Shown here piece by piece: positions 26,158 to 61,037 of a stretch of 64,000 nt of DNA. Source of the stretch: Escherichia phage BF15. The notes beneath the pieces are model-generated. The model searched no databases. It was not told where the DNA came from and saw only the letters and a program-made list of their open reading frames with translations. The DNA lies in the sequence record MW822007.1; one strand, 5' to 3'. The position numbers were made by a program, and so were the translations under genes. How positions within the stretch are numbered: position 1 is the first letter of the stretch; each line of letters starts with the position of its first letter.

Positions 26158-27336
26158 TTAAAAATATTTTTTAAAACTCATCATAACTTTATCATCAACA
26201 TCATTATCAATCTGTGCTACAAGGTAAGATGATAGTTCTACTTCTTGCGGCGCGGATTGAACATTATCAGAATTAAGGTATTCACGAATCCAAGGATATG
26301 GATGTTTAACCGGAGCATCGGTAATTGGGCATGGAAGACCGCACTGTTTCATACGAGATACAGTTAAGTAATCAATAAAGCTCCACATGCTATTTGTATT
26401 TAATCCAGGAACATCACCATCTTTAAATAAATGAACTGCCCAATCTTTTTCTTGGCGGTTAACTTCCATGAAAATATCAACTGCTTCTTGTTCACACTCT
26501 TGGGCAATTTTAACCCATTCATCACCATCAGTGCCAAGCTGAAGTTGACGAATAATATATTGGGTGCCTTTAAGGTGAAGCTGCTCATCACGAGCAATGA
26601 ACTTCATAATCTTGGCATTACCTTCCATGATTTCCATGTTCTTATGGAAGTTAAAGGTACATGCGAAAGATACATAAAAACGAATAGCTTCCAATGCGTT
26701 GATTACATGAAGGCAAAGATAAAGAGATTTCATTAGTGCTCGTTTAGCTTCGGCTTCTTGTTTAATAGCTCGATTTAAACGAAAATCAGCATCAGGAGAT
26801 TCTTTAGCTAGTTCTACAAATTCTTTAGCATTTTCCCATTCACGGGTCTTCTTAAGAACATCATCGTAATAGCGACCAATGGACTCAGCGCGTTTCATAA
26901 TATCTTCATCTAATACAATCTCATCAAATACCTTTGATGGGTCAGTATAAAGATTTCGCATGATATGAGTATATGAACGACTGTGAATAGTTTCACTAAA
27001 AGTCCATGTAGCAACCCATGTATCAAGGCTTGGGTCTGAAATTAATGACATAAGTACTGCAGACGGTGCACGACCCTGAATGCTATCTAGAAGTGATTGA
27101 TACTTCAGGTTATTAGTAAAAATATCTTGCTGATACTGAGGAAGCTTGTTAAATTGTGCAGCATCCATCATCAAGTTTACTTCTTCAGGGCGCCAGAAAA
27201 ATGATAATTGCTTTTCGGTTAAATCTTCAAAAACTTTATGGCGTTGAATATCATAACGCGCAATACCAAGACCTGAACCGAAGAACATAGGTTCTTTTAA
27301 AACATCAACTGGATTTGTATTAAAAACTGTGCTCAT
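26158..27336 (-). CDS. nrdB: Ribonucleotide reductase small subunit, uninterrupted
   Basis: 392 aa contiguous ORF; no intron or intron-encoded ORF. Confidence 0.95.
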   Translation of the reverse strand: MSTVFNTNPVDVLKEPMFFGSGLGIARYDIQRHKVFEDLTEKQLSFFWRPEEVNLMMDAAQFNKLPQYQQDIFTNNLKYQSLLDSIQGRAPSAVLMSLISDPSLDTWVATWTFSETIHSRSYTHIMRNLYTDPSKVFDEIVLDEDIMKRAESIGRYYDDVLKKTREWENAKEFVELAKESPDADFRLNRAIKQEAEAKRALMKSLYLCLHVINALEAIRFYVSFACTFNFHKNMEIMEGNAKIMKFIARDEQLHLKGTQYIIRQLQLGTDGDEWVKIAQECEQEAVDIFMEVNRQEKDWAVHLFKDGDVPGLNTNSMWSFIDYLTVSRMKQCGLPCPITDAPVKHPYPWIREYLNSDNVQSAPQEVELSSYLVAQIDNDVDDKVMMSFKKYF

Positions 27337-27387: not shown

Positions 27388-29652
27388 TCATAATTTACAG
27401 GATGAACAATCTTCAGCTTTTGGAGTTTCTATTTCATAATCATCAGTACCAGAACCATCACGGGTATTATGATAATAGAAATTTTTTCCGCCAAAATACC
27501 AAAAGTACAAAAGGTCATCAATCATTACAGACATTGGAACCTTTCCTTTTGGAAAAATCTGCGGGTCATAATATGTATTCGCTGAAGCTGATTGACACAC
27601 CCATTTCAGCATAATAGCTACCTGCGTAAGATAAGGTTTATTACCTTTCTTAGCTAATTTCCACGTATAATCATAGAGGTCTATGTTATGCTCAATATTG
27701 GGCACGACTTGATTAAAGGAACCCTCTTTTGATTCTTTAACAGAGACTGGTCCACGTGGAGGCTCGATACCGTTTGTACTGTTAGAAACTTGGGAAGATG
27801 ACTCACATGGCATAAGTGCTGATAATGTGCTATTACGGATGCCAAAGAGCTTAAGGTCTTCCCGCAGCGCCGACCAGTCACAAACGTATTTTGGAGCTGC
27901 GATTTGGTCAATCTTTTTATTGTACCAGTCGATAGGTAATTCGCCTCGAGACCAACGAGTGTCTGAATAATATTCGCAAGGTCCTTTTTCTTTGGCGAGC
28001 TTAATGGATGCTTTAATGAGTCCATACTGTAATCTCTCAAATAGTTCATGTGTTAAATCGTTAGCATCTTCATAAGAAGCAAAGTTACTTGCCAGCCAAG
28101 CTGCATAGTTAGTAACACCTACGCCAAGGTTTCGACGTTTTTTAGCTTTTTCTGCTTCAGGAACTGGATATCCTTGGTAGTCCAAAAGATTATCAAGAGC
28201 GCGAACTTGGACTTCTGCCAATTCATTAATTTTATCTTGGTCTTGCCAATCGAAGTTATCCAACACAAATGCAGACAATGTACACAATCCAATTTCGGCA
28301 TCAGGACTATTCACGTCATTTGTTGGAATAGCAATTTCACAGCACAAGTTACTCTGGCGAATAGGTGCCTTTTCACGAATAAACGGAGTATAGTTATTCG
28401 TATTATCAATGAACTGTACATAAATCCTTGCTGTTCCTGATCGTTCAGTCATGAGCAATTCAAACAGTTCACGGGCTTTAATACGCTTTTTACGAATATT
28501 AGGGTCTTTTTCTGCGGCTTCATATAATTCACGGAAACGGTCTTGGTCTTTAAAATAAGAATAATAAAGCTCGCCACCCATTTCATGTGGACTAAACAAA
28601 GTAATGTAATCGTTCTTTCCAAAACGTTCCATCATCAAATCATTCAGCTGGACACCATAATCCATATGACGGATACGGTTTTCTTCTACGCCTTTGTTAT
28701 TTTTCAAAACGAGAAGATTTTCAACTTCCAAATGCCAAATAGGATAATAAGCAGTAGCAGCGCCGCCACGAATTCCGCCCTGTGAACATGATTTAACAGC
28801 AGTCTGAAAATGTTTCCAAAAAGGAATAACACCAGTATGACGCACTTCACCTGTGCCAATCTTAGAACCTTCGGCACGAATCATACCAACGTTAATGCCG
28901 ATTCCAGCTCGTTTGGAGATATATTCAACAATTGAAGCAGAAGCTTTGTTGATAGACTTCAGCGAATCACCTGCCTCAATAACAACGCATGAACTAAACT
29001 GCCGAGTTGGAGTACGACAACCAGCCATAATAGGAGTTGGCAATGAAATCTGTCGAGTAGATACTGCTTCATAAAAACGAATAACATGTTTTAATCTATC
29101 AACAGGTTCATCTTGATGCAATGCCATTCCAATAGTCATAAATGCAAACTGTGGAGTTTCATAAATTTGACCAGTGGTTTTATCTTTAACTAGATATTTT
29201 TCTTTTAACTGCATCGCCCCGGAATAAGTAAATTCCATATCCCGCTCGTGCTTAATTTTTGATTCTAAAAATGTAATTTCTTCTGCTGAATATTTTGACA
29301 ACAGTTCAGGGTCGTATTTACCTTCATTTACGCAGTAAGAAATATGGTCAATAAATGAACGTGGTTCATATTGCCCGTAAACATGCTTACGAAGAGCGAA
29401 CATTAAACAGCGCGCAGCTACATATTGATAATCAGGCTCTTCAACTGAAATAGAATTCGCAGCAGCCTTAATTACAATGGTTTGAATGTCATCAGTTGTC
29501 ATTCCATCACGGAGATATGATTTAATATTTTCATATAATTCATAAGGATCTACAGATGTTCCTTCAGCTGCCCAAGATAAAACTTTAATAATTTTTTGTG
29601 GGTCAAAGCTTTGAGAAACACCGCTACTTTTGATAACATTAATTAATTGCAT
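27388..29652 (-). CDS. nrdA: Ribonucleotide reductase large subunit
   Basis: 754 aa class I RNR alpha subunit. Confidence 0.95.
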   Translation of the reverse strand: MQLINVIKSSGVSQSFDPQKIIKVLSWAAEGTSVDPYELYENIKSYLRDGMTTDDIQTIVIKAAANSISVEEPDYQYVAARCLMFALRKHVYGQYEPRSFIDHISYCVNEGKYDPELLSKYSAEEITFLESKIKHERDMEFTYSGAMQLKEKYLVKDKTTGQIYETPQFAFMTIGMALHQDEPVDRLKHVIRFYEAVSTRQISLPTPIMAGCRTPTRQFSSCVVIEAGDSLKSINKASASIVEYISKRAGIGINVGMIRAEGSKIGTGEVRHTGVIPFWKHFQTAVKSCSQGGIRGGAATAYYPIWHLEVENLLVLKNNKGVEENRIRHMDYGVQLNDLMMERFGKNDYITLFSPHEMGGELYYSYFKDQDRFRELYEAAEKDPNIRKKRIKARELFELLMTERSGTARIYVQFIDNTNNYTPFIREKAPIRQSNLCCEIAIPTNDVNSPDAEIGLCTLSAFVLDNFDWQDQDKINELAEVQVRALDNLLDYQGYPVPEAEKAKKRRNLGVGVTNYAAWLASNFASYEDANDLTHELFERLQYGLIKASIKLAKEKGPCEYYSDTRWSRGELPIDWYNKKIDQIAAPKYVCDWSALREDLKLFGIRNSTLSALMPCESSSQVSNSTNGIEPPRGPVSVKESKEGSFNQVVPNIEHNIDLYDYTWKLAKKGNKPYLTQVAIMLKWVCQSASANTYYDPQIFPKGKVPMSVMIDDLLYFWYFGGKNFYYHNTRDGSGTDDYEIETPKAEDCSSCKL

Positions 29653-30209: not shown

Positions 30210-31070
30210 TTACACCGCCATTTTTCCTTTAATAGGAGGGTGTGATTCGTAACCTTTAAGAACGAAATCTTTAGGCCTGAGTTTAAGAACATATTCCAAT
30301 TGTTCTTTAGTAGAAAGATGGCGGAATTTATAAGGCAATCCGCCTATTACCAGTTCACAAAGCTCTTTAGGTTCACGACGTAAAATTTCTTTACATTGTT
30401 CCACGTGATTCATATAGATATGAGTATTACCGCCAGAAAATATCAAATCTCCAGGAATAAGATTACACATCTTAGCTACAATATGAACTAATGCAGCATA
30501 TGATGCAATATTAAATGGAAGACCGAGGAAAACATCTACCGAACGTTGATACCACTGCAAATCCAAATAGCCATTACGCACATTAAACTGATAGAACATA
30601 TGACAAGGCGGTAATGCCATATATTTAAGTTCAGCTGGATTCCACGCAGAAACAATTTGACGCCTATCATTTGGTAGTTTTTTAATACGATCAACAACTT
30701 CTACAATTTGGTCTACACCGCCAAAATCACGCCACTGTTTTCCATAAATTGGACCAAGTTCACCACTATGATATCCTAAATCTTTTGCTTGATTTTCGTA
30801 ATTTTCATCCCAGACTGTTTTGCCTTGAATTAATGAATCATGTTGAATTAATCGCAAATCATTGACATTTGTGCTTCCTGATAAAAACCATATTAGCTCA
30901 GCGATGCAAGCTTTCCAAGCGAGCTTCTTAGTCGTTACTGCAGGAAAACCTTTAGTTAAATCCCAGCGTAATTTAGTACCGAACAAAGCAATTGTTCCTG
31001 TGCCTGTTCGGTCATCGGTTTCATAGCCGTTTTCAAAAATGTCTTTAATTAAATCTTGGTATTGTTTCAT
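30210..31070 (-). CDS. td: Thymidylate synthase, uninterrupted
   Basis: 286 aa contiguous; PPCHMFYQF active-site region; no intron. Confidence 0.95.
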   Translation of the reverse strand: MKQYQDLIKDIFENGYETDDRTGTGTIALFGTKLRWDLTKGFPAVTTKKLAWKACIAELIWFLSGSTNVNDLRLIQHDSLIQGKTVWDENYENQAKDLGYHSGELGPIYGKQWRDFGGVDQIVEVVDRIKKLPNDRRQIVSAWNPAELKYMALPPCHMFYQFNVRNGYLDLQWYQRSVDVFLGLPFNIASYAALVHIVAKMCNLIPGDLIFSGGNTHIYMNHVEQCKEILRREPKELCELVIGGLPYKFRHLSTKEQLEYVLKLRPKDFVLKGYESHPPIKGKMAV

Positions 31071-42740: not shown

Positions 42741-45700
42741 ATGGCTACTTTAAAACAAATACAATTTAAAAGAAGCAAAACTGCAGGAGCACGTCCTGCC
42801 GCTTCAGTATTAGCCGAAGGTGAATTGGCTATAAACTTAAAAGACCGTGTACTTTTTACTAAAGATGACCAAGGAAATATTATCGATCTGGGTTTTGCTA
42901 AAGGCGGTAGTATTGACGGGAATGTTATTCATACAGGCAATTATAACCAAACTGGCGATTATACTTTAAATGGCACCTTCACTCAGACTGGTAATTTTAA
43001 TTTAACTGGTATTGCTCGAGTAACTCGCGATATTATTGCCGCTGGGCAGATTATGACTGAAGGCGGAGAACTTATTACAAAAAGTTCAGGTACAGCGCAT
43101 GTTCGTTTTTTCGATAACAATAGTCGCGAACGTGGAATCATTTATGCCCCGGCTAATGATGGTTTAACTACACAAGTACTTAATATCAGGGTTCAAGACT
43201 ACGCCGCTGGTGATGAAAGCACCTATGCATTTTCGGGCAGTGGCCTATTTACTTCACCTGAAGTATCAGCATGGAAATCTATTTCGTCTCCACAAATTCT
43301 GACCGATAAAGTTATTACAAATGGGAAGAAGACAGGCGATTATGATATATCTTCATTAGCAAATAATAATTCTGATACAGATAAAAACTATTTGCGCATT
43401 GTACGTACCGACCCAGCGGCCGCAATGCTCCATGAAATTTGCGAAAATAACGGCATCAGTTGGTATTCCGGTTCAACCCCTACTGATTACATGTTGTCTT
43501 TTGCTTATTCAGGTGGTTTTCAAGCTGGGCATTCGATTGCAGTAGGTATGGAATCAGGGCCTATAACATATTCAGCCTTAGGTAAAGGTTCTATTGCTCT
43601 TGGCGATAATGACACCGGGCTAAAATGGCATCAGGATGGATATTTTTTTACGGTAAGCAACGGTACAAAAACTTTCCTTTCTGGTCCGGCGGAAACCACT
43701 AGCCTTAGAAAAATGGTTATGGGTTATTCTGTAAATGGTACTGATTTGACTACTCCTCCAACTGAAAATTATGCTCTTGCAACTGTAGTTACTTACCATG
43801 ATAATAACGCGTATGGTGACGGTCAGACTCTTTTAGGATATTATCAAGGTGGTAATTACCACCACTATTTCCGTGGTAAAGGCACTACAAATATTAACAC
43901 TGCAGGCGGATTGTTAGTTACTCCAGGCAATATTGACGTTATTGGTGGTTCTGTTAATATCGATGGTAGAAATAATTCTTCTACGCTGATGTTTAGAGGT
44001 AACACAACAGGATACAGCTCAGTTGATAATATGGATATTAAAGTTTGGGGTAATACTTTTGTTGATCCAAGCGAAGGCACCCGTAAAAATATCATGGAAA
44101 TTTCTGATGCAACTAGTTGGATGAGCTATATTCAAAGACTTACAACAGGTGAAGTAGAAATGAACGTTAACGGTTCATTTGAATCATCTGGTGTTACTGC
44201 TGGAAATAGAGGAGTTCACACAACAGGCGAAATTTCATCTGGAGCAGTGAATGCGCTTCGCATTTGGAACGCAGATTATGGAGCTATTTTTAGACGTTCA
44301 GAAGGTAGTCTTCATATTATTCCAACTGCTTATGGTGAAGGTAAACATGGTGATATCGGTCCACTTCGCCCGTTTAGTATGGCTTTAGATACTGGTAAAG
44401 TTACTATTCCAGATTTACAATCAAGTTACAATACGTTTGCAGCAAACGGTTATATTAAATTTACTGGTCACGGCGCAGGCGCGGGCGGTTATGATATTCA
44501 ATATGTTCAAGCAGCTCCTGTTTTCCAAGAAATCGATGATGATGCTATAAGCAAATATTATCCTATTGTTAAACAGAAGTTTTTAAACGGTAAAGCCGTT
44601 TGGTCTTTAGGTACTGAAATTAATTCGGGTACATTTGTTTTACACCATATCAAAGAAGATGGATCACAAGGACATACATCTCGTTTTAATCAAGACGGTA
44701 CGGTTAATTTCCCTGATAATGTTCAGGTTGGTGGTGGTGAAGCTACTATTGCTCGCAACGGTAACATCTGGTCTGATATCTGGAAAACGTTTACTTCAGC
44801 AGGAGACACCACAAATATTCGCGATGCAATAGCTACCCGTGTTTCTAAAGAAGGCGACACGATGACCGGCACTCTTTGGATTAATAAAGATGCTGCTGGA
44901 ATAGTTCTTAATCCTCCTTTGGCCAGTGATTCATCATTTATTCGTTCCGATACGGCCGGGGTAAATAATTGGTATATTGGTAAAGGCGGTGCCGACAATG
45001 GTCTAGGTTTTTACAGTTATGTTACACAAGGCGGTGTATATATAACAAATAACGGAGAAATATCACTTTCTCCTCAAGGCCAAGGAACATTTAATTTTAA
45101 TAGAGACCGCCTCCATATAAACGGTACACAATGGACCGCACACCAGGGAGGTGGTTGGGGAAATCAATGGAATCAAGAAGCACCGGTATTTGTAGATTTT
45201 GGTAATGTTGGTAATGATAGTTATTATCCTATTATTAAAGGAAAATCCGGTATTACTAATGAAGGATACGTATCTGGTGTAGATTTTGGTATGCGACGCA
45301 TTACTAATACATGGGCACAAGGTATTATTCGTGTAGGTAATCAGGAAAATGGTTATGACCCACAAGCTGTATATGAATTCCATCATAACGGTACTTTTTA
45401 TGCTCCAAGCTTACTTAAGAGCAGTAGAGTATCAGCTGGTGGTGGTGACCCAGCATGGGGCAGTCCTTGTATTGTATTAGGTGACAATGATACCGGATTT
45501 CTTTGGGAAGCAGATGGTATTTTCAACGCATATGCAAACGGCCAAGGCGTATTCAGTTTTAGAGCTGGTCTCGCACAAACGTTCGGTAACGTTAACTTCC
45601 ACTGTAACGCCGGTATGTATGTTCGTGATAACATTGATGTTAACGATGTTTATATCCGTTCTGATATTCGTTGTAAGTCAGAAATTAAGCTTATTAAGAA

Positions 45701-45980
45701 CGCTCAAGAGAAATCTAAACTCTTAGGCGGCTATACTTATCTGCTTAAAAACCCTGTTACAGACGAAGTTAAACCGTCTGCAGGTTTAATTGCTCAGGAA
45801 GTTCAAGAAGTATTACCTGAACTTGTTTCTGAAGATAAAGAGACCGGCTTACTTCGTTTAAACTATAACGGTATTATCGGTTTAAATACTGCTACTATCA
45901 ACGAGCATACTGACGAAATCAAGGAATTGAAATCTGAAATTGCTGAGTTGAAAGCATTAATTAAATCATTGATAAAATAA
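42741..45980 (+). CDS. 37: Long tail fibre distal subunit gp37 with C-terminal intramolecular chaperone domain
   Basis: 1079 aa; the C-terminal ~106 aa from SDIRCKSEIK...GLIAQEVQEVLPELV... plus terminal coiled coil resemble S74-type auto-cleaving chaperone domains. Confidence 0.9.
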   Translation: MATLKQIQFKRSKTAGARPAASVLAEGELAINLKDRVLFTKDDQGNIIDLGFAKGGSIDGNVIHTGNYNQTGDYTLNGTFTQTGNFNLTGIARVTRDIIAAGQIMTEGGELITKSSGTAHVRFFDNNSRERGIIYAPANDGLTTQVLNIRVQDYAAGDESTYAFSGSGLFTSPEVSAWKSISSPQILTDKVITNGKKTGDYDISSLANNNSDTDKNYLRIVRTDPAAAMLHEICENNGISWYSGSTPTDYMLSFAYSGGFQAGHSIAVGMESGPITYSALGKGSIALGDNDTGLKWHQDGYFFTVSNGTKTFLSGPAETTSLRKMVMGYSVNGTDLTTPPTENYALATVVTYHDNNAYGDGQTLLGYYQGGNYHHYFRGKGTTNINTAGGLLVTPGNIDVIGGSVNIDGRNNSSTLMFRGNTTGYSSVDNMDIKVWGNTFVDPSEGTRKNIMEISDATSWMSYIQRLTTGEVEMNVNGSFESSGVTAGNRGVHTTGEISSGAVNALRIWNADYGAIFRRSEGSLHIIPTAYGEGKHGDIGPLRPFSMALDTGKVTIPDLQSSYNTFAANGYIKFTGHGAGAGGYDIQYVQAAPVFQEIDDDAISKYYPIVKQKFLNGKAVWSLGTEINSGTFVLHHIKEDGSQGHTSRFNQDGTVNFPDNVQVGGGEATIARNGNIWSDIWKTFTSAGDTTNIRDAIATRVSKEGDTMTGTLWINKDAAGIVLNPPLASDSSFIRSDTAGVNNWYIGKGGADNGLGFYSYVTQGGVYITNNGEISLSPQGQGTFNFNRDRLHINGTQWTAHQGGGWGNQWNQEAPVFVDFGNVGNDSYYPIIKGKSGITNEGYVSGVDFGMRRITNTWAQGIIRVGNQENGYDPQAVYEFHHNGTFYAPSLLKSSRVSAGGGDPAWGSPCIVLGDNDTGFLWEADGIFNAYANGQGVFSFRAGLAQTFGNVNFHCNAGMYVRDNIDVNDVYIRSDIRCKSEIKLIKNAQEKSKLLGGYTYLLKNPVTDEVKPSAGLIAQEVQEVLPELVSEDKETGLLRLNYNGIIGLNTATINEHTDEIKELKSEIAELKALIKSLIK

Positions 45981-46010: not shown

Positions 46011-46790
46011 ATGGCAGTAGTAGGAATCCCTGGTTGGATTGGGACTTCAGCCGTCGCTGAAACAGGCCAACGTTGGATGACAGCAGCTTCTAGAGAATTG
46101 CGTCTTGGTAACCCATCTTGGATGTCCCAATTCGCAGGCCGCTCAAGAGAAATTATTCACACACTTGGAGCAGACCATAACTTCAATGGTCAATGGTTCC
46201 GAGATAGATGTTTTGAGGCAGGTAGTGCACCTATAGTGTTTAATATTACAGGTGATTTAGTATCATATTCTAAAGATGTTCCTTTATTTTTCATGTATGG
46301 AGATACACCGAATGAATATGTTCAGTTGAATATACACGGCGTAACGATGTATGGACGTGGCGGTAATGGCGGTAGCAATAGTCCTGGCTCAGCTGGAGGT
46401 CATTGTATTCAAAACGATATTGGTGGGAGACTAAGAATTAATAATGGTGGAGCTATTGCAGGCGGCGGTGGCGGCGGTGGCGGCGGTAACAGGGGTAGAC
46501 TAGTATTTGGTGGCGGCGGTGGTCGTCCATTTGGTGCTGGTGGGTCTTCCTCTCATATGAGTGCTGGTGCAACCGCTGGCACCATTTACGCTCCGGGTGC
46601 AGGATCTGTCGGTGAGGGGTCTCTTAGTGCATATACAGGCGGGTCTGGTGGTGAAGTAGGTTCCGCGGGAGGTAGATGTAATACTCACGGTGCCGGTACA
46701 GAATATAACGGCGGAGCTGCTGGTTATGCTGTTATAGGGTCTGCTCCAACGTGGATAAATGTTGGAGCAATATATGGTCCAAGAGTATAA
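46011..46790 (+). CDS. 38: Receptor-recognising adhesin gp38 (T2-type, glycine-rich)
   Basis: 259 aa; multiple poly-Gly blocks ([21 protein letters not shown]) alternating with variable segments. Confidence 0.85.
46461..46487 (+). repeat. Coding trinucleotide repeat (GGCGGCGGT)x3 inside gene 38
   Basis: Direct tandem repeat encoding a Gly9 run. Confidence 0.7.
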
Positions 46791-55731: not shown

Positions 55732-57909
55732 TTAGGCCGCAAGGGCCTTCATAGTTTTAGCGATTTGGGAAACTTCATCATCACTTAAAGAGTTGCGATA
55801 TCCGATGAAGTCGGAAACAATACGGAATTTCTTGGTAAACTCAGCAACCATTTTATCACTGTTTTTTGAAGCATTATTTGATAATACATCAAAAAGATTA
55901 GTTACTGTCCAGATGTCATGACCGATGGTATCTTTTCCACCATTAAAATATACACCCTGTAATGAACTAACCATATTAGCAAGTCGTGTATATTCTTCAG
56001 AAACTTCATCTACGCTGAAGTACTTCATCATAAAATCTAATTCAGGATACTTGATAATTTTATCAATATATCGTTTAGCTGAACTTGAATAACCTACATA
56101 CTTATCATAATCTACATCATCAAAAGCATCTACATATAAATCACGCAAAGCTTCAAAAATACATTGGCACTGACCGAGTTCTTTTACCTTTTTCTGTAAA
56201 AGCGGACGAATAACATAAAATTCATTAATGCCAATAAGATTAGCCATACGAATCAAAATATTCATAGATGGATGACAAAGAGATGTAGTACCATCCATAG
56301 AGAAAATATCAGAACGATGCATATACGCTACATAACCAGTAATTTCATCTGCTTCTGACGTGAGCGTAAATAGTTCCTCTTTTTCCCATCGCCCATCTTT
56401 AATTTCAAATTTAAATGCTGTAGCAGCTTTAGGACGAGGAGCTTTACTTTTAACTACCTTTGGAATATAGCTTTTAACTAAAGCTTCAATTTCTGACAAA
56501 TAATGAATGTTAACTTCATCACTTTCAAACATCGCCATAATATCAGGGAGTAAATCAATCTGCGATTCTACTTCTGGATTAATAAACAGAAGACGCTCAT
56601 TGTGATGAATATTCAAAGTGTTATTAAATTCACTATCATCTAACGCATGTGCTAATCCACGAACAATATTAACACGATTTTTAATATCATCAATAACGAT
56701 ATTAATTTTTGTTGTATTAATACCAAACAGACGATAACTTGATGCAACGGCTGAAGTTTCATGACTTTGCTTAATGCGCTTCAGTCGAGGGTCAAGATTT
56801 ACTTCATACACAACTCCTGCATTGCATAACTTACTGTCAGGTTCAAACATGCTCTGCATCTTTTTATATGACAGATTTTTAGTCGTGAATTTAACTGAAT
56901 TACTAATCATATAATCTCGAGCAGAATACCCCATCTTCATCAATTCACGATATGTGTGACGAGGAGATGTAGATTCTTTAAATCGTTTTACATCTTCATT
57001 AAATGCTTTCTCACTGAGTTCTTTAACTCGTTCAATAATATTTTTACGAGTACGATCATCCAGCGAAAGAGCCTCGCGAGATGGAGCAATATCAAGTGAA
57101 CCCATTGGAAACTTAATGTAATTCACTTCATTGCGAATGCTTAGCCAGTTACGGTCTCTAATAACACCATCGATAGGATAAACAATACCGCCATAGATAG
57201 CATACAATCCGCCGCGATCTGGCCAGTATCTTTCTGGATTTACACCGTAATAGTCGTCAAAATCCGGAAAATAATCAATTTCGCGGTCAAGACCATTAAT
57301 GATAGCCAAATCTTTGAATGGTCGCATGATATAAGAAACTTCATAAGCAAAGTTTCTAAAGTCTTTTTCTTCAACTGGAACTACGATTTCAATACCAGTT
57401 TTATCATCTGGACCCATTTCTTTTACGAATGTAGGTTTAATCTGTGGACCATCACCGTCCATATAAGCTACATAACCACGAATTTCACCTTTATGGTATG
57501 AAGTAATACTAAACGTATCAGTATAACTAAATGGAGATTTAGAACCTAAACCAAATCCGCCAATAAAGTCATTAGATTCAGCCTTAGATGAACTAAAGTA
57601 TGAATTATACAACCCAGGAGAATTATCATCACCTTGAATATCAAAATCACTCATACCCGGACCAAAATCTCGACAAACAAATCGTGGGTCTAAACGTCCA
57701 GGAACTTGTATGATAAATTTTTCAGGATTTCCATTAAGTGCATGGGCATCAATCATGTTAGTAATTAATTCACGGACTACTGCGCGAATCTTGTTTGTAT
57801 ACAAATCAGATGACAGAATTTTAAATACTTTAGGATTTGCTGCGATGCTAAATGCTTTTGATTTAGAACCATTACCAAGAATTGTTTCTTTTTCAGTGGT
57901 GATAATCAT
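55732..57909 (-). CDS. rIIA: rIIA protein
   Basis: 725 aa as in T4; synteny. Confidence 0.9.
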
Positions 57910-57919
57910 AATTTCCTCA

Positions 57920-58123
57920 TTAATTCATATTACGCTTAATAACTTCGGCAACTTCTAGTAGTTCATCTTTAGTTGCGGTGTCGGATTGAATTTTATCTCT
58001 AATATCCTTAAAGCGGTTTTTAAATTCTTCGGCTTCTCCCATATCGAAAAAGCGTTGAATGATTCTATATTCTCGATGAACTGCTTTATCAAAAAGTTCT
58101 AAATTTACTTTATATGATTTCAT
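57920..58123 (-). CDS. Hypothetical protein (rIIA.1 position)
   Basis: 67-aa track ORF. Confidence 0.6.
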
Positions 58124-58148
58124 TTCAATATCCTCATTTGTCCAATTA

Positions 58149-58178
58149 ATTATACCACATCCTTGTGGTAAAGTAAAC
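58149..58178 (-). promoter_or_regulatory. T4-type early promoter
   Basis: Minus strand GTTTACTTTACCACAAGGATGTGGTATAAT. Confidence 0.55.
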
Positions 58179-58710
58179 TACTGGCTCATCCATTCTTTAC
58201 GAAGGTCAGCGTTATCTCCCATGAGCATTTCAAAAAGCTCTTTCCAGTTCTCAGGAAGTTTAACAACATCATATACTGGGTTTTGAATCATCTCACGATA
58301 TTCAGATTTTTCCAAAGAGCCAAGTCCCTTAATATAACGGATGCTATGTTTAGGTAGAGCATCTTTAGCACTCTCATATTCAGCGACTGTATAAAACCAT
58401 TCTTGTTTTTTACCGACCTGAGCGATGATTACAGGAGTTTTGACAAAGCGAATTCGTCCTTGCTCAAACAATTCTGGCCAATTACTAAAAAATCCGAGCA
58501 GAGAAGGATAAATAGAACCTAATCCAATAATCTCTTAATTATGAGGTATTTCTATAGATAGCCCGAAGGCTATCCATCGTGATCTGCGTCTGTCATAATA
58601 GCGACATTCGCATAGTTCATTGAAGAGGATTTAATAGAACGACGAACATTGTTCTGCAATTTATATTTTTTCATATCAACGCTAGAAGAATCAATTTTTA
58701 CAAATTTCAT
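58178..58710 (-). CDS. 60: Topoisomerase II small subunit gp60, made by translational bypass of a 50-nt coding gap
   Basis: 46-codon segment MKFVKIDSS...TDADHDG ends GGA-UAG; second segment LGSIYPSLLGFFSNWPELFEQGRIRF... resumes after a matching GGA; the track splits it into 58570..58761 and 58178..58471. Confidence 0.9.
58523..58572 (-). other. 50-nt non-decoded coding gap of gene 60 (take-off GGA, UAG stop, take-off hairpin, landing GGA)
   Basis: Minus strand GAU-GGA-UAG-CCUUCGGGCUAUCUAUAGAAAUACCUCAUAAUUAAGAGAUUAUUG-GA-UUA; UUCG tetraloop hairpin at take-off. Confidence 0.9.
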
Positions 58711-59509
58711 TATACACCTCATAGAACTTTTCATCAGGAATCCAACCGCGTTTAAATTCATTAAATGCTCGGCCGAATAATTTTGAATTCACAGTTATAT
58801 TATTAACTGATTTCCATTTAGCAACTCCCGTTCGTTTATAATGATCGGGGTCATATTTCGTGACGTACCATTCATATAAATTTGGTATTAATTTTACAGC
58901 CTCTGGATTTGTCGCTGATTTATTATACCATGGTTTCGCTTTTTCAAGTTCAGCTGCTTTTGCAGTAGCAGCAACAGTATTTCCAATACCAACTAATTTT
59001 TCAGCTTTAATGCGTGGATCATTAACATGAAGACGAAAAACTTCGCCTTTTTCATTTTTAAAGCATGTCATGCCTTTAATTCCAGGAAGCTTAACACCTT
59101 TATTAACACCGCACCATTCCTTTGGGTTAAATGATCCTTTAATTAATAAGGCGCATTTACCCGATTTAATACTTCTCATTAAAACTTTATCTTTCATAAA
59201 GTTTTTTGACCATTCAGATACTGCTCTTTGATGGTAAATTCTAGCAATTTCATATAATTTACTAGAACGTAAATATTTTTCAGTGTTTAACATTCTATTC
59301 ATCGCATATGCCATTTCACGATTACGATGAATTTTATATAGTAGAAAATGTGCTAAAAAATGTTCACGAAAAGTCAGTTTCACCAAATTTTCTTTATCAT
59401 CAGAACCTCCCATTGATCTTGGAAGGATATGATGAATTTCACCCTTAAATTTAGAAACGCGGGTTTTACCCCGCACTATTAAGTCATTATAGATTTTTTC
59501 GTAATTCAC
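58691..59509 (-). CDS. mobA: HNH homing endonuclease between genes 39 and 60
   Basis: 272 aa; EIHHILPRSMGGSDDKENLVKLTFREHFLAH HNH motif; non-ATG start in the track. Confidence 0.75.
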   Translation of the reverse strand: MNYEKIYNDLIVRGKTRVSKFKGEIHHILPRSMGGSDDKENLVKLTFREHFLAHFLLYKIHRNREMAYAMNRMLNTEKYLRSSKLYEIARIYHQRAVSEWSKNFMKDKVLMRSIKSGKCALLIKGSFNPKEWCGVNKGVKLPGIKGMTCFKNEKGEVFRLHVNDPRIKAEKLVGIGNTVAATAKAAELEKAKPWYNKSATNPEAVKLIPNLYEWYVTKYDPDHYKRTGVAKWKSVNNITVNSKLFGRAFNEFKRGWIPDEKFYEVYNEICKN

Positions 59510-61037
59510 CTACTGTTATCCATTTACCATTAATCTGTACTTCATCATTTTCATTTACGATAATTGTATCGCCATTTAGTTCGAAAGTAAACCACTCGCC
59601 ATCTTCTTTTTCTTCAAACGCCTTTTCACCGAGAACTAGACCAGTGATTGCGCAAATATCAAATAGTTCTTTGTTTTTAAGCATATCTGCATAAGACATA
59701 CCCCAACTGTTGAGAACTTTACCGCGCAATGGATAACCACCATGAAGTTCTTTATCACGAACATCAATAAGATATCCGATAGCAGAATCACCCTCAGTCA
59801 AGAAAAGAGTAGTGTCAGCATCTTTACCGCAAAGATTCGCTTTGATATGTTTATGAACCTTAGCTTTAGAAGCCTTTTTAGCTGCTTTAGTTTCTGCTGC
59901 TTTTTCTGCCGCCAATTTACGAGCCAAAGCAGCTTCAATAATCGGCATCAAAATCGCTTCATTATTTAGAATAGCACGTGAAATCTTTTTAGCATCAAGT
60001 TGAATATGACTACGGATTTCGCCAAATGGAGAAGTCAAACGCTCTTTAGTTTGAGAATCAAATCGCATGTTTTTCATATCACGAACAAACATAATGATAG
60101 TCAAACATTCTTTAACACGTGCTTTAGTCACATCAATTTTGAACTTACGTTTGATTTGTGGAATAAGGTCTTCACAAATATCATCCATAACACAGTCAAT
60201 GTGATGGCCACCATTCTTAGTGTGGATGTTATTGACGTATGTTAATTGACGAAAACCATCCGGTGAACGACCAACTGCAATAGAACAGTTTTCTTGTTCT
60301 TGAACGATAGCATGCTCATCATACTGTCGTGCATATTTCTTAAAATTGCCCTGAACCTTTTTACCATTAAAGGTAAATTGAATATCAGGATAAACAACAG
60401 CAAGTGTCTGGAGACGATCTAGTGTAATGTCAAGATAAACTTGGGACAGCTCATTAGTTTCAAATGACATAAAATCGGGAATGAAAGTAACACGAGTTCC
60501 TTTCCATTTTCCAGGAATATCTTCCCATGATTTATTTTCCATGCCATTTGAACAACGAACTACAATATTATTTTGACCATCACCAGTTTCACCGACAAAC
60601 ATCACAGAAAAAATGTTTGTCAAACTAGAACCAACACCATTCATACCGCCAGTGACGCGTTCTTTATCATCACCGAAGTTACCACCTGCTTTTGGAATAG
60701 TCCATGCAGCAACAGGACCAGGAATTTCTTCACCGGTAGGTGTTTTAACCATCGCTTGTGGAATACCACGACCGTTATCTTCAACTGTTACTTGATTGTT
60801 TTTAATAGTAACATTAATTTTATTTGCGAATTTAAACTTAGTACGAATACTTTCATCTACTGAGTTATCGATAATTTCATCAATAAGCTTAACAAGACCA
60901 GGTACATACTGAACACTTTCCCATTTACCAAACAGAAAGCGCTCATGCATTTCATTAGCAGAAGAGCCAATATACATGCCGCTACGCTTTTTGATATGTT
61001 CAATATCGCTCAGAATTTTAATTTCATTCTTAATCAT
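59487..61037 (-). CDS. 39: Topoisomerase II large (ATPase) subunit gp39
   Basis: 516 aa from second Met; GHKL ATPase motifs (IIDNSVDE, DNGRGIP). Confidence 0.9.
   Translation of the reverse strand: MIKNEIKILSDIEHIKKRSGMYIGSSANEMHERFLFGKWESVQYVPGLVKLIDEIIDNSVDESIRTKFKFANKINVTIKNNQVTVEDNGRGIPQAMVKTPTGEEIPGPVAAWTIPKAGGNFGDDKERVTGGMNGVGSSLTNIFSVMFVGETGDGQNNIVVRCSNGMENKSWEDIPGKWKGTRVTFIPDFMSFETNELSQVYLDITLDRLQTLAVVYPDIQFTFNGKKVQGNFKKYARQYDEHAIVQEQENCSIAVGRSPDGFRQLTYVNNIHTKNGGHHIDCVMDDICEDLIPQIKRKFKIDVTKARVKECLTIIMFVRDMKNMRFDSQTKERLTSPFGEIRSHIQLDAKKISRAILNNEAILMPIIEAALARKLAAEKAAETKAAKKASKAKVHKHIKANLCGKDADTTLFLTEGDSAIGYLIDVRDKELHGGYPLRGKVLNSWGMSYADMLKNKELFDICAITGLVLGEKAFEEKEDGEWFTFELNGDTIIVNENDEVQINGKWITVGELRKNL

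Follow-up and report, generated by a model that had tools for sequence, protein, structure and literature searches.

Gene 60 of phage T4 is the founding example of programmed bypassing. Among the known forms of programmed recoding it is the classic one and also the most extreme, as one protein is encoded in two frames with 50 undecoded bases between them. The translational bypass of T4 gene 60 was reportedly described by Huang et al. in 1988 and Weiss et al. in 1990. About 50% of the ribosomes complete the hop in T4 (bioRxiv 10.1101/2022.08.31.505936; PMC7026636). One defining feature of the bypass is a Shine-Dalgarno-like GAG that precedes the landing codon by approximately 6 nt (bioRxiv 10.1101/2022.08.31.505936), and a signal encoded by codons 14-30 acts inside the ribosomal exit tunnel (bioRxiv 10.1101/2022.08.31.505936; PMC7026636). 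A comparable system is formed by the 'byp' elements of Magnusiomyces capitatus mitochondria, 27-55-nt inserts that are skipped between matched codons (bioRxiv 10.1101/2022.08.31.505936; PMC7026636). Both systems combine a take-off stem-loop with a slow-to-decode A-site codon, but this codon is a stop codon in gene 60 and an unassigned sense codon in 'byp'. Moreover, the yeast elements are unrelated in sequence, occur in many copies per genome and have no linked homing endonuclease.

The gene 60 arrangement has been attributed to homing by the endonuclease MobA (Bonocora 2011, as cited in bioRxiv 10.1101/2022.08.31.505936 and PMC7026636). According to the same work, as represented in later papers, MobA nicks topoisomerase genes that lack the cassette, after which the element homes in (via PMC2988022, PMC7026636 and bioRxiv 10.1101/2022.08.31.505936). 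The gap interrupts the target site of MobA itself, so the carrier genome is shielded from cleavage (Bonocora 2011, as relayed in this literature). In Manning and Atkins 2022, the length of the element is given as 1097-1106 nt, and clade 1, that of E. coli, has nine extra nt (bioRxiv 10.1101/2022.08.31.505936). The MobA element is defined by an approximately 44-aa C-terminal and a 44-46-aa N-terminal extension (bioRxiv 10.1101/2022.08.31.505936), and its endonuclease is an HNH-family protein of 269-279 aa. The GTG start of mobA and its 23-bp overlap have been described as well (PMC2988022).

Here, we analyzed the corresponding locus in a 64,000-nt stretch of Escherichia phage BF15 (MW822007.1), referred to as the window. 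All coordinates are positions in this window, in which gene 60 is located on the minus strand (Table 1). The locus almost certainly carries an intact ribosome bypass of the T4 gene 60 type, in which 50 nt would be skipped to produce gp60. This assignment is based on how the element is built, on its identity to T4, on the colinearity of the joined product with uninterrupted homologues, and on the conservation of signals and matched codons in distant relatives. For the hop itself, the roles of the individual signals, and the homing and self-protection by MobA, we rely on experiments published for T4, whose sequence is identical here. None of the sequence evidence spoke against bypass.

Table 1. 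Features of gene 60 and the surrounding cassette in the window of Escherichia phage BF15.
Feature	Coordinates	Strand	Description and basis
Gene 39, topoisomerase II large subunit, N-terminal part	59487..61037	-	516 aa; Pfam HATPase_c and DNA_gyraseB; T4 annotation
MobA mobile element	58514..59619	-	1106 nt; inserted in the topoisomerase II large-subunit gene
mobA, predicted free-standing HNH homing endonuclease	58691..59509	-	Intact, 272 aa; GTG start
Shine-Dalgarno GAGG of gene 60	58717..58720	-	6 nt 5' of ATG; read from sequence
Gene 60 ORF1	58573..58710	-	46 codons, MKFVK...DADHDG; translation, identical to T4
Nascent-peptide signal, ORF1 codons 14-30 (KKYKLQNNVRRSIKSSS)	58621..58671	-	T4-identical sequence; role from literature
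5' stem-loop upstream of take-off hairpin	58580..58619	-	Folding; T4-identical; role from literature
Take-off stem-loop AUGGAUAGCC-UUCG-GGCUAUCUAU	58554..58577	-	10 bp, UUCG tetraloop
Take-off codon GGA (Gly46)	58573..58575	-	Codon 46, end of ORF1
UAG stop	58570..58572	-	Directly 3' of take-off GGA
Coding gap, UAG through landing GGA	58523..58572	-	50 nt; annotated in T4 records as bypass region
Shine-Dalgarno-like GAG	58532..58534	-	6 nt (AUUAUU) before landing GGA; sequence; role from literature
Landing codon GGA	58523..58525	-	UUA GGU UCU directly 3'
Gene 60 ORF2	58178..58522	-	114 codons and TAG (58180..58178), LGSIYPS...EWMSQ; translation

The region 58100..58800 (701 nt) shows 99.6% identity to more than 14 T4 records, and 100% across the bypass signals. 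Only three mismatches to T4 are present (58367, 58211 and 58141), all downstream of these signals. Two of them fall within gene 60, both in ORF2, and are synonymous (Ala98 and Asn150). Furthermore, 58368..59004 is a 100%, base-for-base match to phage T4T. Given this identity to T4T and the position of the three T4 mismatches outside the signals, the gene 60 arrangement is not a product of chance. In the records of both T4 and T4T, gene 60 is entered as a two-piece join, and these very 50 nt are labelled 'non-coding translational bypass region'. A preliminary description of the locus had assigned it to the T4 gene 60 architecture and had considered the gap sequence to match T4 and not to be new here; both statements agree with these records. 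The alignment to T4 gene 60 that it proposed gave the same outcome at the protein level, as the joined translation of ORF1 and ORF2 (160 aa) is identical to T4 gp60. All signals that define the T4 gene 60 bypass (clade 1, Manning and Atkins 2022) match base for base. The E. coli clade contains few natural variants, which spare or strengthen the signals (e.g., a U-to-C change that turns a G.U pair in the stem into G-C), and BF15 carries the T4 version at each variable site.

In PDB 8yo3, the joined product aligns with the T4 gp39-gp60 chain at residues 517-676, with 160/160 matching positions; it also matches Pfam TOPRIM_C (E = 6e-8). The junction between ORF1 and ORF2 falls in the TOPRIM DxDxDG motif, and the tryptic peptide spanning the predicted gp60 junction DADHDG-LGSIYPS is SSSMNYANVAIMTDADHDGLGSIYPSLLGFFSNWPELFEQGR.

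ORF1 opens with an ATG at 58710 and its translated product is MKFVKIDSSSVDMKKYKLQNNVRRSIKSSSMNYANVAIMTDADHDG; the 46-aa nascent chain in PDB 5np6 (chain C) equals residues 1-46 of the gene 60 product. The preliminary description had delimited the gene as 58178-58761. Its lower end is correct, but the start has to be placed at 58710, the position that corresponds to the annotated T4 start, as 58761 is an upstream in-frame ATG inside mobA and a merely mechanical ORF start. The other anatomical elements it named are all present. The 46-codon minus-strand ORF ends with GGA followed by UAG, and both triplets lie within the 5' arm of the UUCG stem-loop. The predicted fold of this take-off stem-loop has a free energy of -13.6 kcal/mol (z = -5.4), and 0/200 shuffled sequences fold as well. 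The 5' stem-loop reaches -10.8 kcal/mol (z = -1.8) and is equalled by 10/200 shuffles. A second GGA indeed follows; counted from the U of UAG up to and including the final A of this GGA, the interval is exactly 50 nt. The ORF2 translation then begins with LGSIYPSLLGFFSNWPELFEQGRIRF in a frame displaced by two bases relative to ORF1, and encodes the remaining TOPRIM region and its C-terminal associated domain. The 43 nt 3' of the landing site, where a 3' stem-loop is predicted, are identical in sequence to T4 and yield -3.4 kcal/mol (z = 0.17 versus shuffles). As this segment folds no better than shuffled sequences, a putative barrier to forward slippage is supported by T4 identity only.

An alternative reading of this anatomy is that two polypeptides are produced, the 46-aa ORF1 peptide and a separate ORF2 product that arises by internal initiation, readthrough or a simple frameshift. 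Termination or drop-off at the take-off site does affect about half of the ribosomes (bioRxiv 10.1101/2022.08.31.505936; PMC7026636), so a 46-aa product would coexist with full-length gp60. However, ORF2 has no start of its own, in line with the preliminary description: TAA at 58537..58535 closes its frame four codons before the landing GGA, the earliest start-like codon in this frame is a TTG at 58471 that lacks a Shine-Dalgarno sequence, and the earliest ATG is located at 58291. Internal initiation would also forfeit the invariant TOPRIM DxDxDG residues that are supplied by ORF1. Readthrough would encounter a second UAG six codons past the first one. Because stop codons are present in 3/3 frames of the 50-nt gap, neither a frameshift at the take-off site nor readthrough can cross it. 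We consider it highly improbable that ORF2 is translated separately in any of these ways.

Bypass, on the other hand, yields the protein that uninterrupted homologues encode directly. When the window is aligned to the uninterrupted 60plus39 gene of phage RB32, exactly the 50 nt are absent from RB32, as one clean block. Across the junction RB32 60plus39 reads ...DADHDGLGSIYPS... (also given as IMTDADHDGLGSIYPSL). Its junction DNA, ATT ATG ACT GAT GCT GAC CAT GAT GGT CTA GGA AGC ATT TAT, gives IMTDADHDGLGSIY, the exact sequence that is obtained when ORF1 is joined to ORF2. The conserved protein is therefore regained by the hop. Similarly, T6 gp39 (PDB 8ylu) aligns without a gap across the junction. 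Among the codons around the gap (T40-S49), 9/10 differ synonymously from RB32, with perfect identity beyond; these synonymous differences fit an element-borne copy of the target region.

A clean 50-nt block that is missing from homologues would also be compatible with removal from the RNA, by a tiny intron or another form of RNA processing, and T4 td, nrdB and nrdD do carry self-splicing group I introns (PMC2988022). Yet, 50 nt is far below the size of a self-splicing intron. Rfam detected no intron and no bypass-element family in the whole window at the gathering threshold. In 57800..59200 at E = 10 it returned two chance snoRNA matches and nothing else. A self-splicing intron was rejected as a candidate, since Rfam recognized no RNA structure typical of group I or group II introns. 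In addition, the T4 mRNA is reported to contain a 'persistent untranslated sequence', and bypassing was reconstituted in vitro and a take-off complex visualized by cryo-EM on the identical T4 sequence (bioRxiv 10.1101/2022.08.31.505936; PMC7026636), PDB 5np6 containing the 46-aa nascent chain. Removal of the 50 nt from the RNA is thus a very remote prospect compared with skipping by the ribosome.

A further reading, namely a pseudogene or assembly error in which the 50 nt are disruptive or mis-assembled and no full-length gp60 is made, can point to the two ORFs that ordinary gene callers return and to the many records annotating two separate 'topoisomerase' CDSs, but is scarcely credible given that 33 independent phage records share these 216 nt with ≥ 99% identity, that the gap, the hairpin and the matched codon pairs are kept in four other genera, that the ORF2 changes relative to T4 are synonymous only, and that the three-subunit T4 enzyme has documented topoisomerase activity (PMC11461880).

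A sensitive DNA search revealed these divergent cassettes, at 70-80% identity, in Salmonella phage S16, Proteus phage PM2, Acinetobacter phages fHyAci03 and KARL-1 and their relatives, and Shewanella phage Thanatos-1. In S16, PM2, fHyAci03 and Thanatos-1, mobA-like ORFs are located between the split topoisomerase halves in all cases. The insertion point (TOPRIM DxDxDG) is the same as in the T4 type, and a Shine-Dalgarno-like purine run precedes the landing codon. The UAG after the take-off codon and the CCUUCGGG hairpin are kept as well; the hairpin core UAGCCUUCGGGCUA is shared by the four other genera, with one loop change in Thanatos-1 (CCUUAGGG). The divergent cassettes differ from the T4 type in the length of the gap (43-52 nt) and in the codon pairs used. 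Nevertheless, the take-off and landing codons can be read by one tRNA in each of the four phages: GGU/GGC in S16 (gap of 48 nt), GGG/GGA in PM2 (51 nt), GAU/GAC in fHyAci03 (43 nt) and GGU/GGU in Thanatos-1 (52 nt). In the Acinetobacter cassette, take-off takes place one codon earlier, at Asp. This matched-pair result in distant relatives has already been published (bioRxiv 10.1101/2022.08.31.505936).

Based on the literature on T4, the bypass in BF15 would proceed as follows. Ribosomes would initiate at AUG 58710 and decode the 46 codons of ORF1, with translation expected to slow down when the nascent peptide KKYKLQNNVRRSIKSSS engages the exit tunnel (bioRxiv 10.1101/2022.08.31.505936; PMC7026636). 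The ribosome would then pause, its P site holding peptidyl-tRNA-Gly on the take-off GGA and its A site the UAG; the top of the UUCG hairpin would form in the A site and block the release factor. The peptidyl-tRNA-Gly would leave its codon and stay on the ribosome, which would slide over 50 nt without decoding, presumably aided by refolding of the 5' stem-loop and by EF-G-dependent GTP hydrolysis. Pairing of the GAG at 58534..58532 with the 16S rRNA's anti-Shine-Dalgarno sequence would precede re-pairing of the tRNA with the GGA at 58525..58523, and decoding would restart at UUA 58522. Together with gp39 and gp52, the resulting 160-aa gp60 would then form the topoisomerase II complex.

An insertion of 1106 nt has the 50-nt gap at its 3' end, and the presence of the 50 nt is explained by their belonging to this selfish element, which also carries mobA. 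The membership of the gap in the mobA homing-endonuclease cassette was absent from the preliminary description. Identity with the fused RB32 gene ends at 59620/59619, inside gene 39, and restarts at 58513, nine nt past the landing codon. Through the insertion, the gene for the topoisomerase II large subunit is divided into genes 39 and 60, as has been published (Bonocora 2011; Manning and Atkins 2022), and both the length and the layout found here agree with the description by Manning and Atkins. It comprises the C-terminal extension of gp39, mobA, the N-terminus of gp60 (46 aa), the 50-nt gap and nine further nt. Residues 1-473 of gp39 are colinear with RB32 60plus39, and the final 43 aa are the insertion-encoded extension. 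BF15 thus has a C-terminal extension of 43 aa (gp39), an N-terminal extension of 46 aa (gp60) and an element of 1106 nt. Insofar as the MobA cassette of Bonocora et al. 2011 is represented in the sources cited above, the 1106-nt insertion is the same, with an HNH ORF overlapping both halves, the same 43-aa gp39 extension and the same 46-aa gp60 N-terminus followed by the gap, and no differences were found.

The mobA gene shares 23 nt with gene 39 and 20 nt with gene 60. Its coordinates and length are as annotated in T4T, from which it differs by three substitutions. It is intact (272 aa) in both BF15 and T4T, whereas it is disrupted in the T4 reference NC_000866.4. The match of MobA to Pfam HNH (E = 7e-4, 20.1 bits) lies just under the curated cut-off of 21.4 bits.

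The BF15 genome is that of a T4 relative (Tequatrovirus) and not of T4 itself. The top match over 24 kb shows 94% identity, and gp37 and gp38 differ from those of T4, with gp38 being of the 259-aa adhesin type. With the 701 nt as query, 498 records gave a match, and 41 of them carry the cassette; the others match from 58513 downstream only. Within the cassette, substitutions amount to approximately 0.4% relative to T4T and 0.8% relative to the T4 reference, compared to 2.2-3.0% relative to T4 in the flanking rIIA and parental gene 39 (Fisher p = 3e-4 for the cassette at 0.8% versus these flanks). A cassette that is nearer to T4 than its flanks fits the view, already published, that the element has been mobile recently. 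The other homing elements that T4 has in this stretch (the td intron, the nrdB intron and mobE) are absent, td and nrdB being uninterrupted. From this sequence comparison, we judge the chances to be about even that the MobA-bypass cassette is an active element that recently homed into a non-T4 Tequatrovirus from a T4-like donor. If so, BF15 would be a natural donor for measuring homing and co-conversion tracts, for which the model has already been published.

The gene 60 bypass element in BF15 adds nothing on the mechanism: this T4-like phage has the T4 hop in unaltered form, and although the hop is real and remarkable, everything about it is already known. Recognizing the bypass is important for genome annotation, since automatic gene calling breaks gene 60 into two fragments, which is how many records still present it. 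Such recognition also marks the mobA cassette as mobile. In this respect, BF15 simply adds another Tequatrovirus to those with an unchanged T4-type cassette.

The phage is a Tequatrovirus other than T4: in the phage collection, the top 24-kb match for window 40000-64000 was only ~94% identical, and the window encodes a gp38 of the adhesin type (Pfam GP38) next to gp37 (table). Compared with the corresponding stretch of T4, the remaining homing elements are missing from the window, whereas the mobA cassette is there and intact. Both nrdB and td are uninterrupted, no group I intron was found by Rfam across the whole window, and the spacer between nrdA and nrdB measures only 51 nt, so that no mobE is present in the window.

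Coordinates of gp37, gp38 and the genes examined for other homing elements
Feature	Position in window	Remark
nrdB	26158-27336	one uninterrupted ORF
nrdA	27388-29652	
td	30210-31070	one uninterrupted ORF
gp37	42741-45980	1079 aa
gp38	46011-46790	259 aa

The bypass element of gene 60 has no family in Rfam release 15; a search of window 57800-59200 returned only two chance snoRNA hits (E ~7-8). Natural variation was read from an alignment of window 58480-58735 with HY01, pSe_SNUABM_01, JEP6, HY03, GRNsp7 and ELT1, phages of the E. coli/Salmonella clade. A U to C change at 58556 converts a G.U pair in the stem of the take-off hairpin to G-C. With A to U at 58553, the second in-frame UAG is lost. 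The nascent peptide varies at two residues (V11I and L18S). In GRNsp7, an additional T after the SD-like GAG and before the landing GGA lengthens the gap to 51 nt; this may be a sequencing error. A gap of 51 nt is also found in the cassette of Proteus phage PM2 (L005, 1400-1660), where GGG and GGA serve as take-off and landing codons; as a consequence of this length, ORF2 shares the frame of ORF1 and the UAG is the only interruption.

Codons T40-S49, which flank the gap (58576-58593 and 58514-58522), differ synonymously at nine of ten positions from the uninterrupted 60plus39 gene of phage RB32, while identity to RB32 is perfect from 58513 onward. The synonymously changed stretch is 'homR', the copy of MobA's target region that the element itself carries. 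The window's mobA is a single intact ORF of 272 aa. Relative to both the window and phage T4T, in whose record mobA is annotated, the T4 reference NC_000866.4 has 11 additional, scattered bases in mobA (58987-59393), which is why this reference record lists mobA as defective and annotates '60.1' as an ORF of its own.

Substitutions relative to the T4 reference amount to 0.8% in the MobA element (58514-59619), versus 2.2% in the rIIA flank (55732-57909) and 3.0% in the parental part of gene 39 (59620-61037); against T4T, the element shows four differences in 1106 nt. The element is much nearer to T4 than its flanking genes (Fisher p = 3e-4), a sequence pattern compatible with the cassette having spread horizontally in the recent past.
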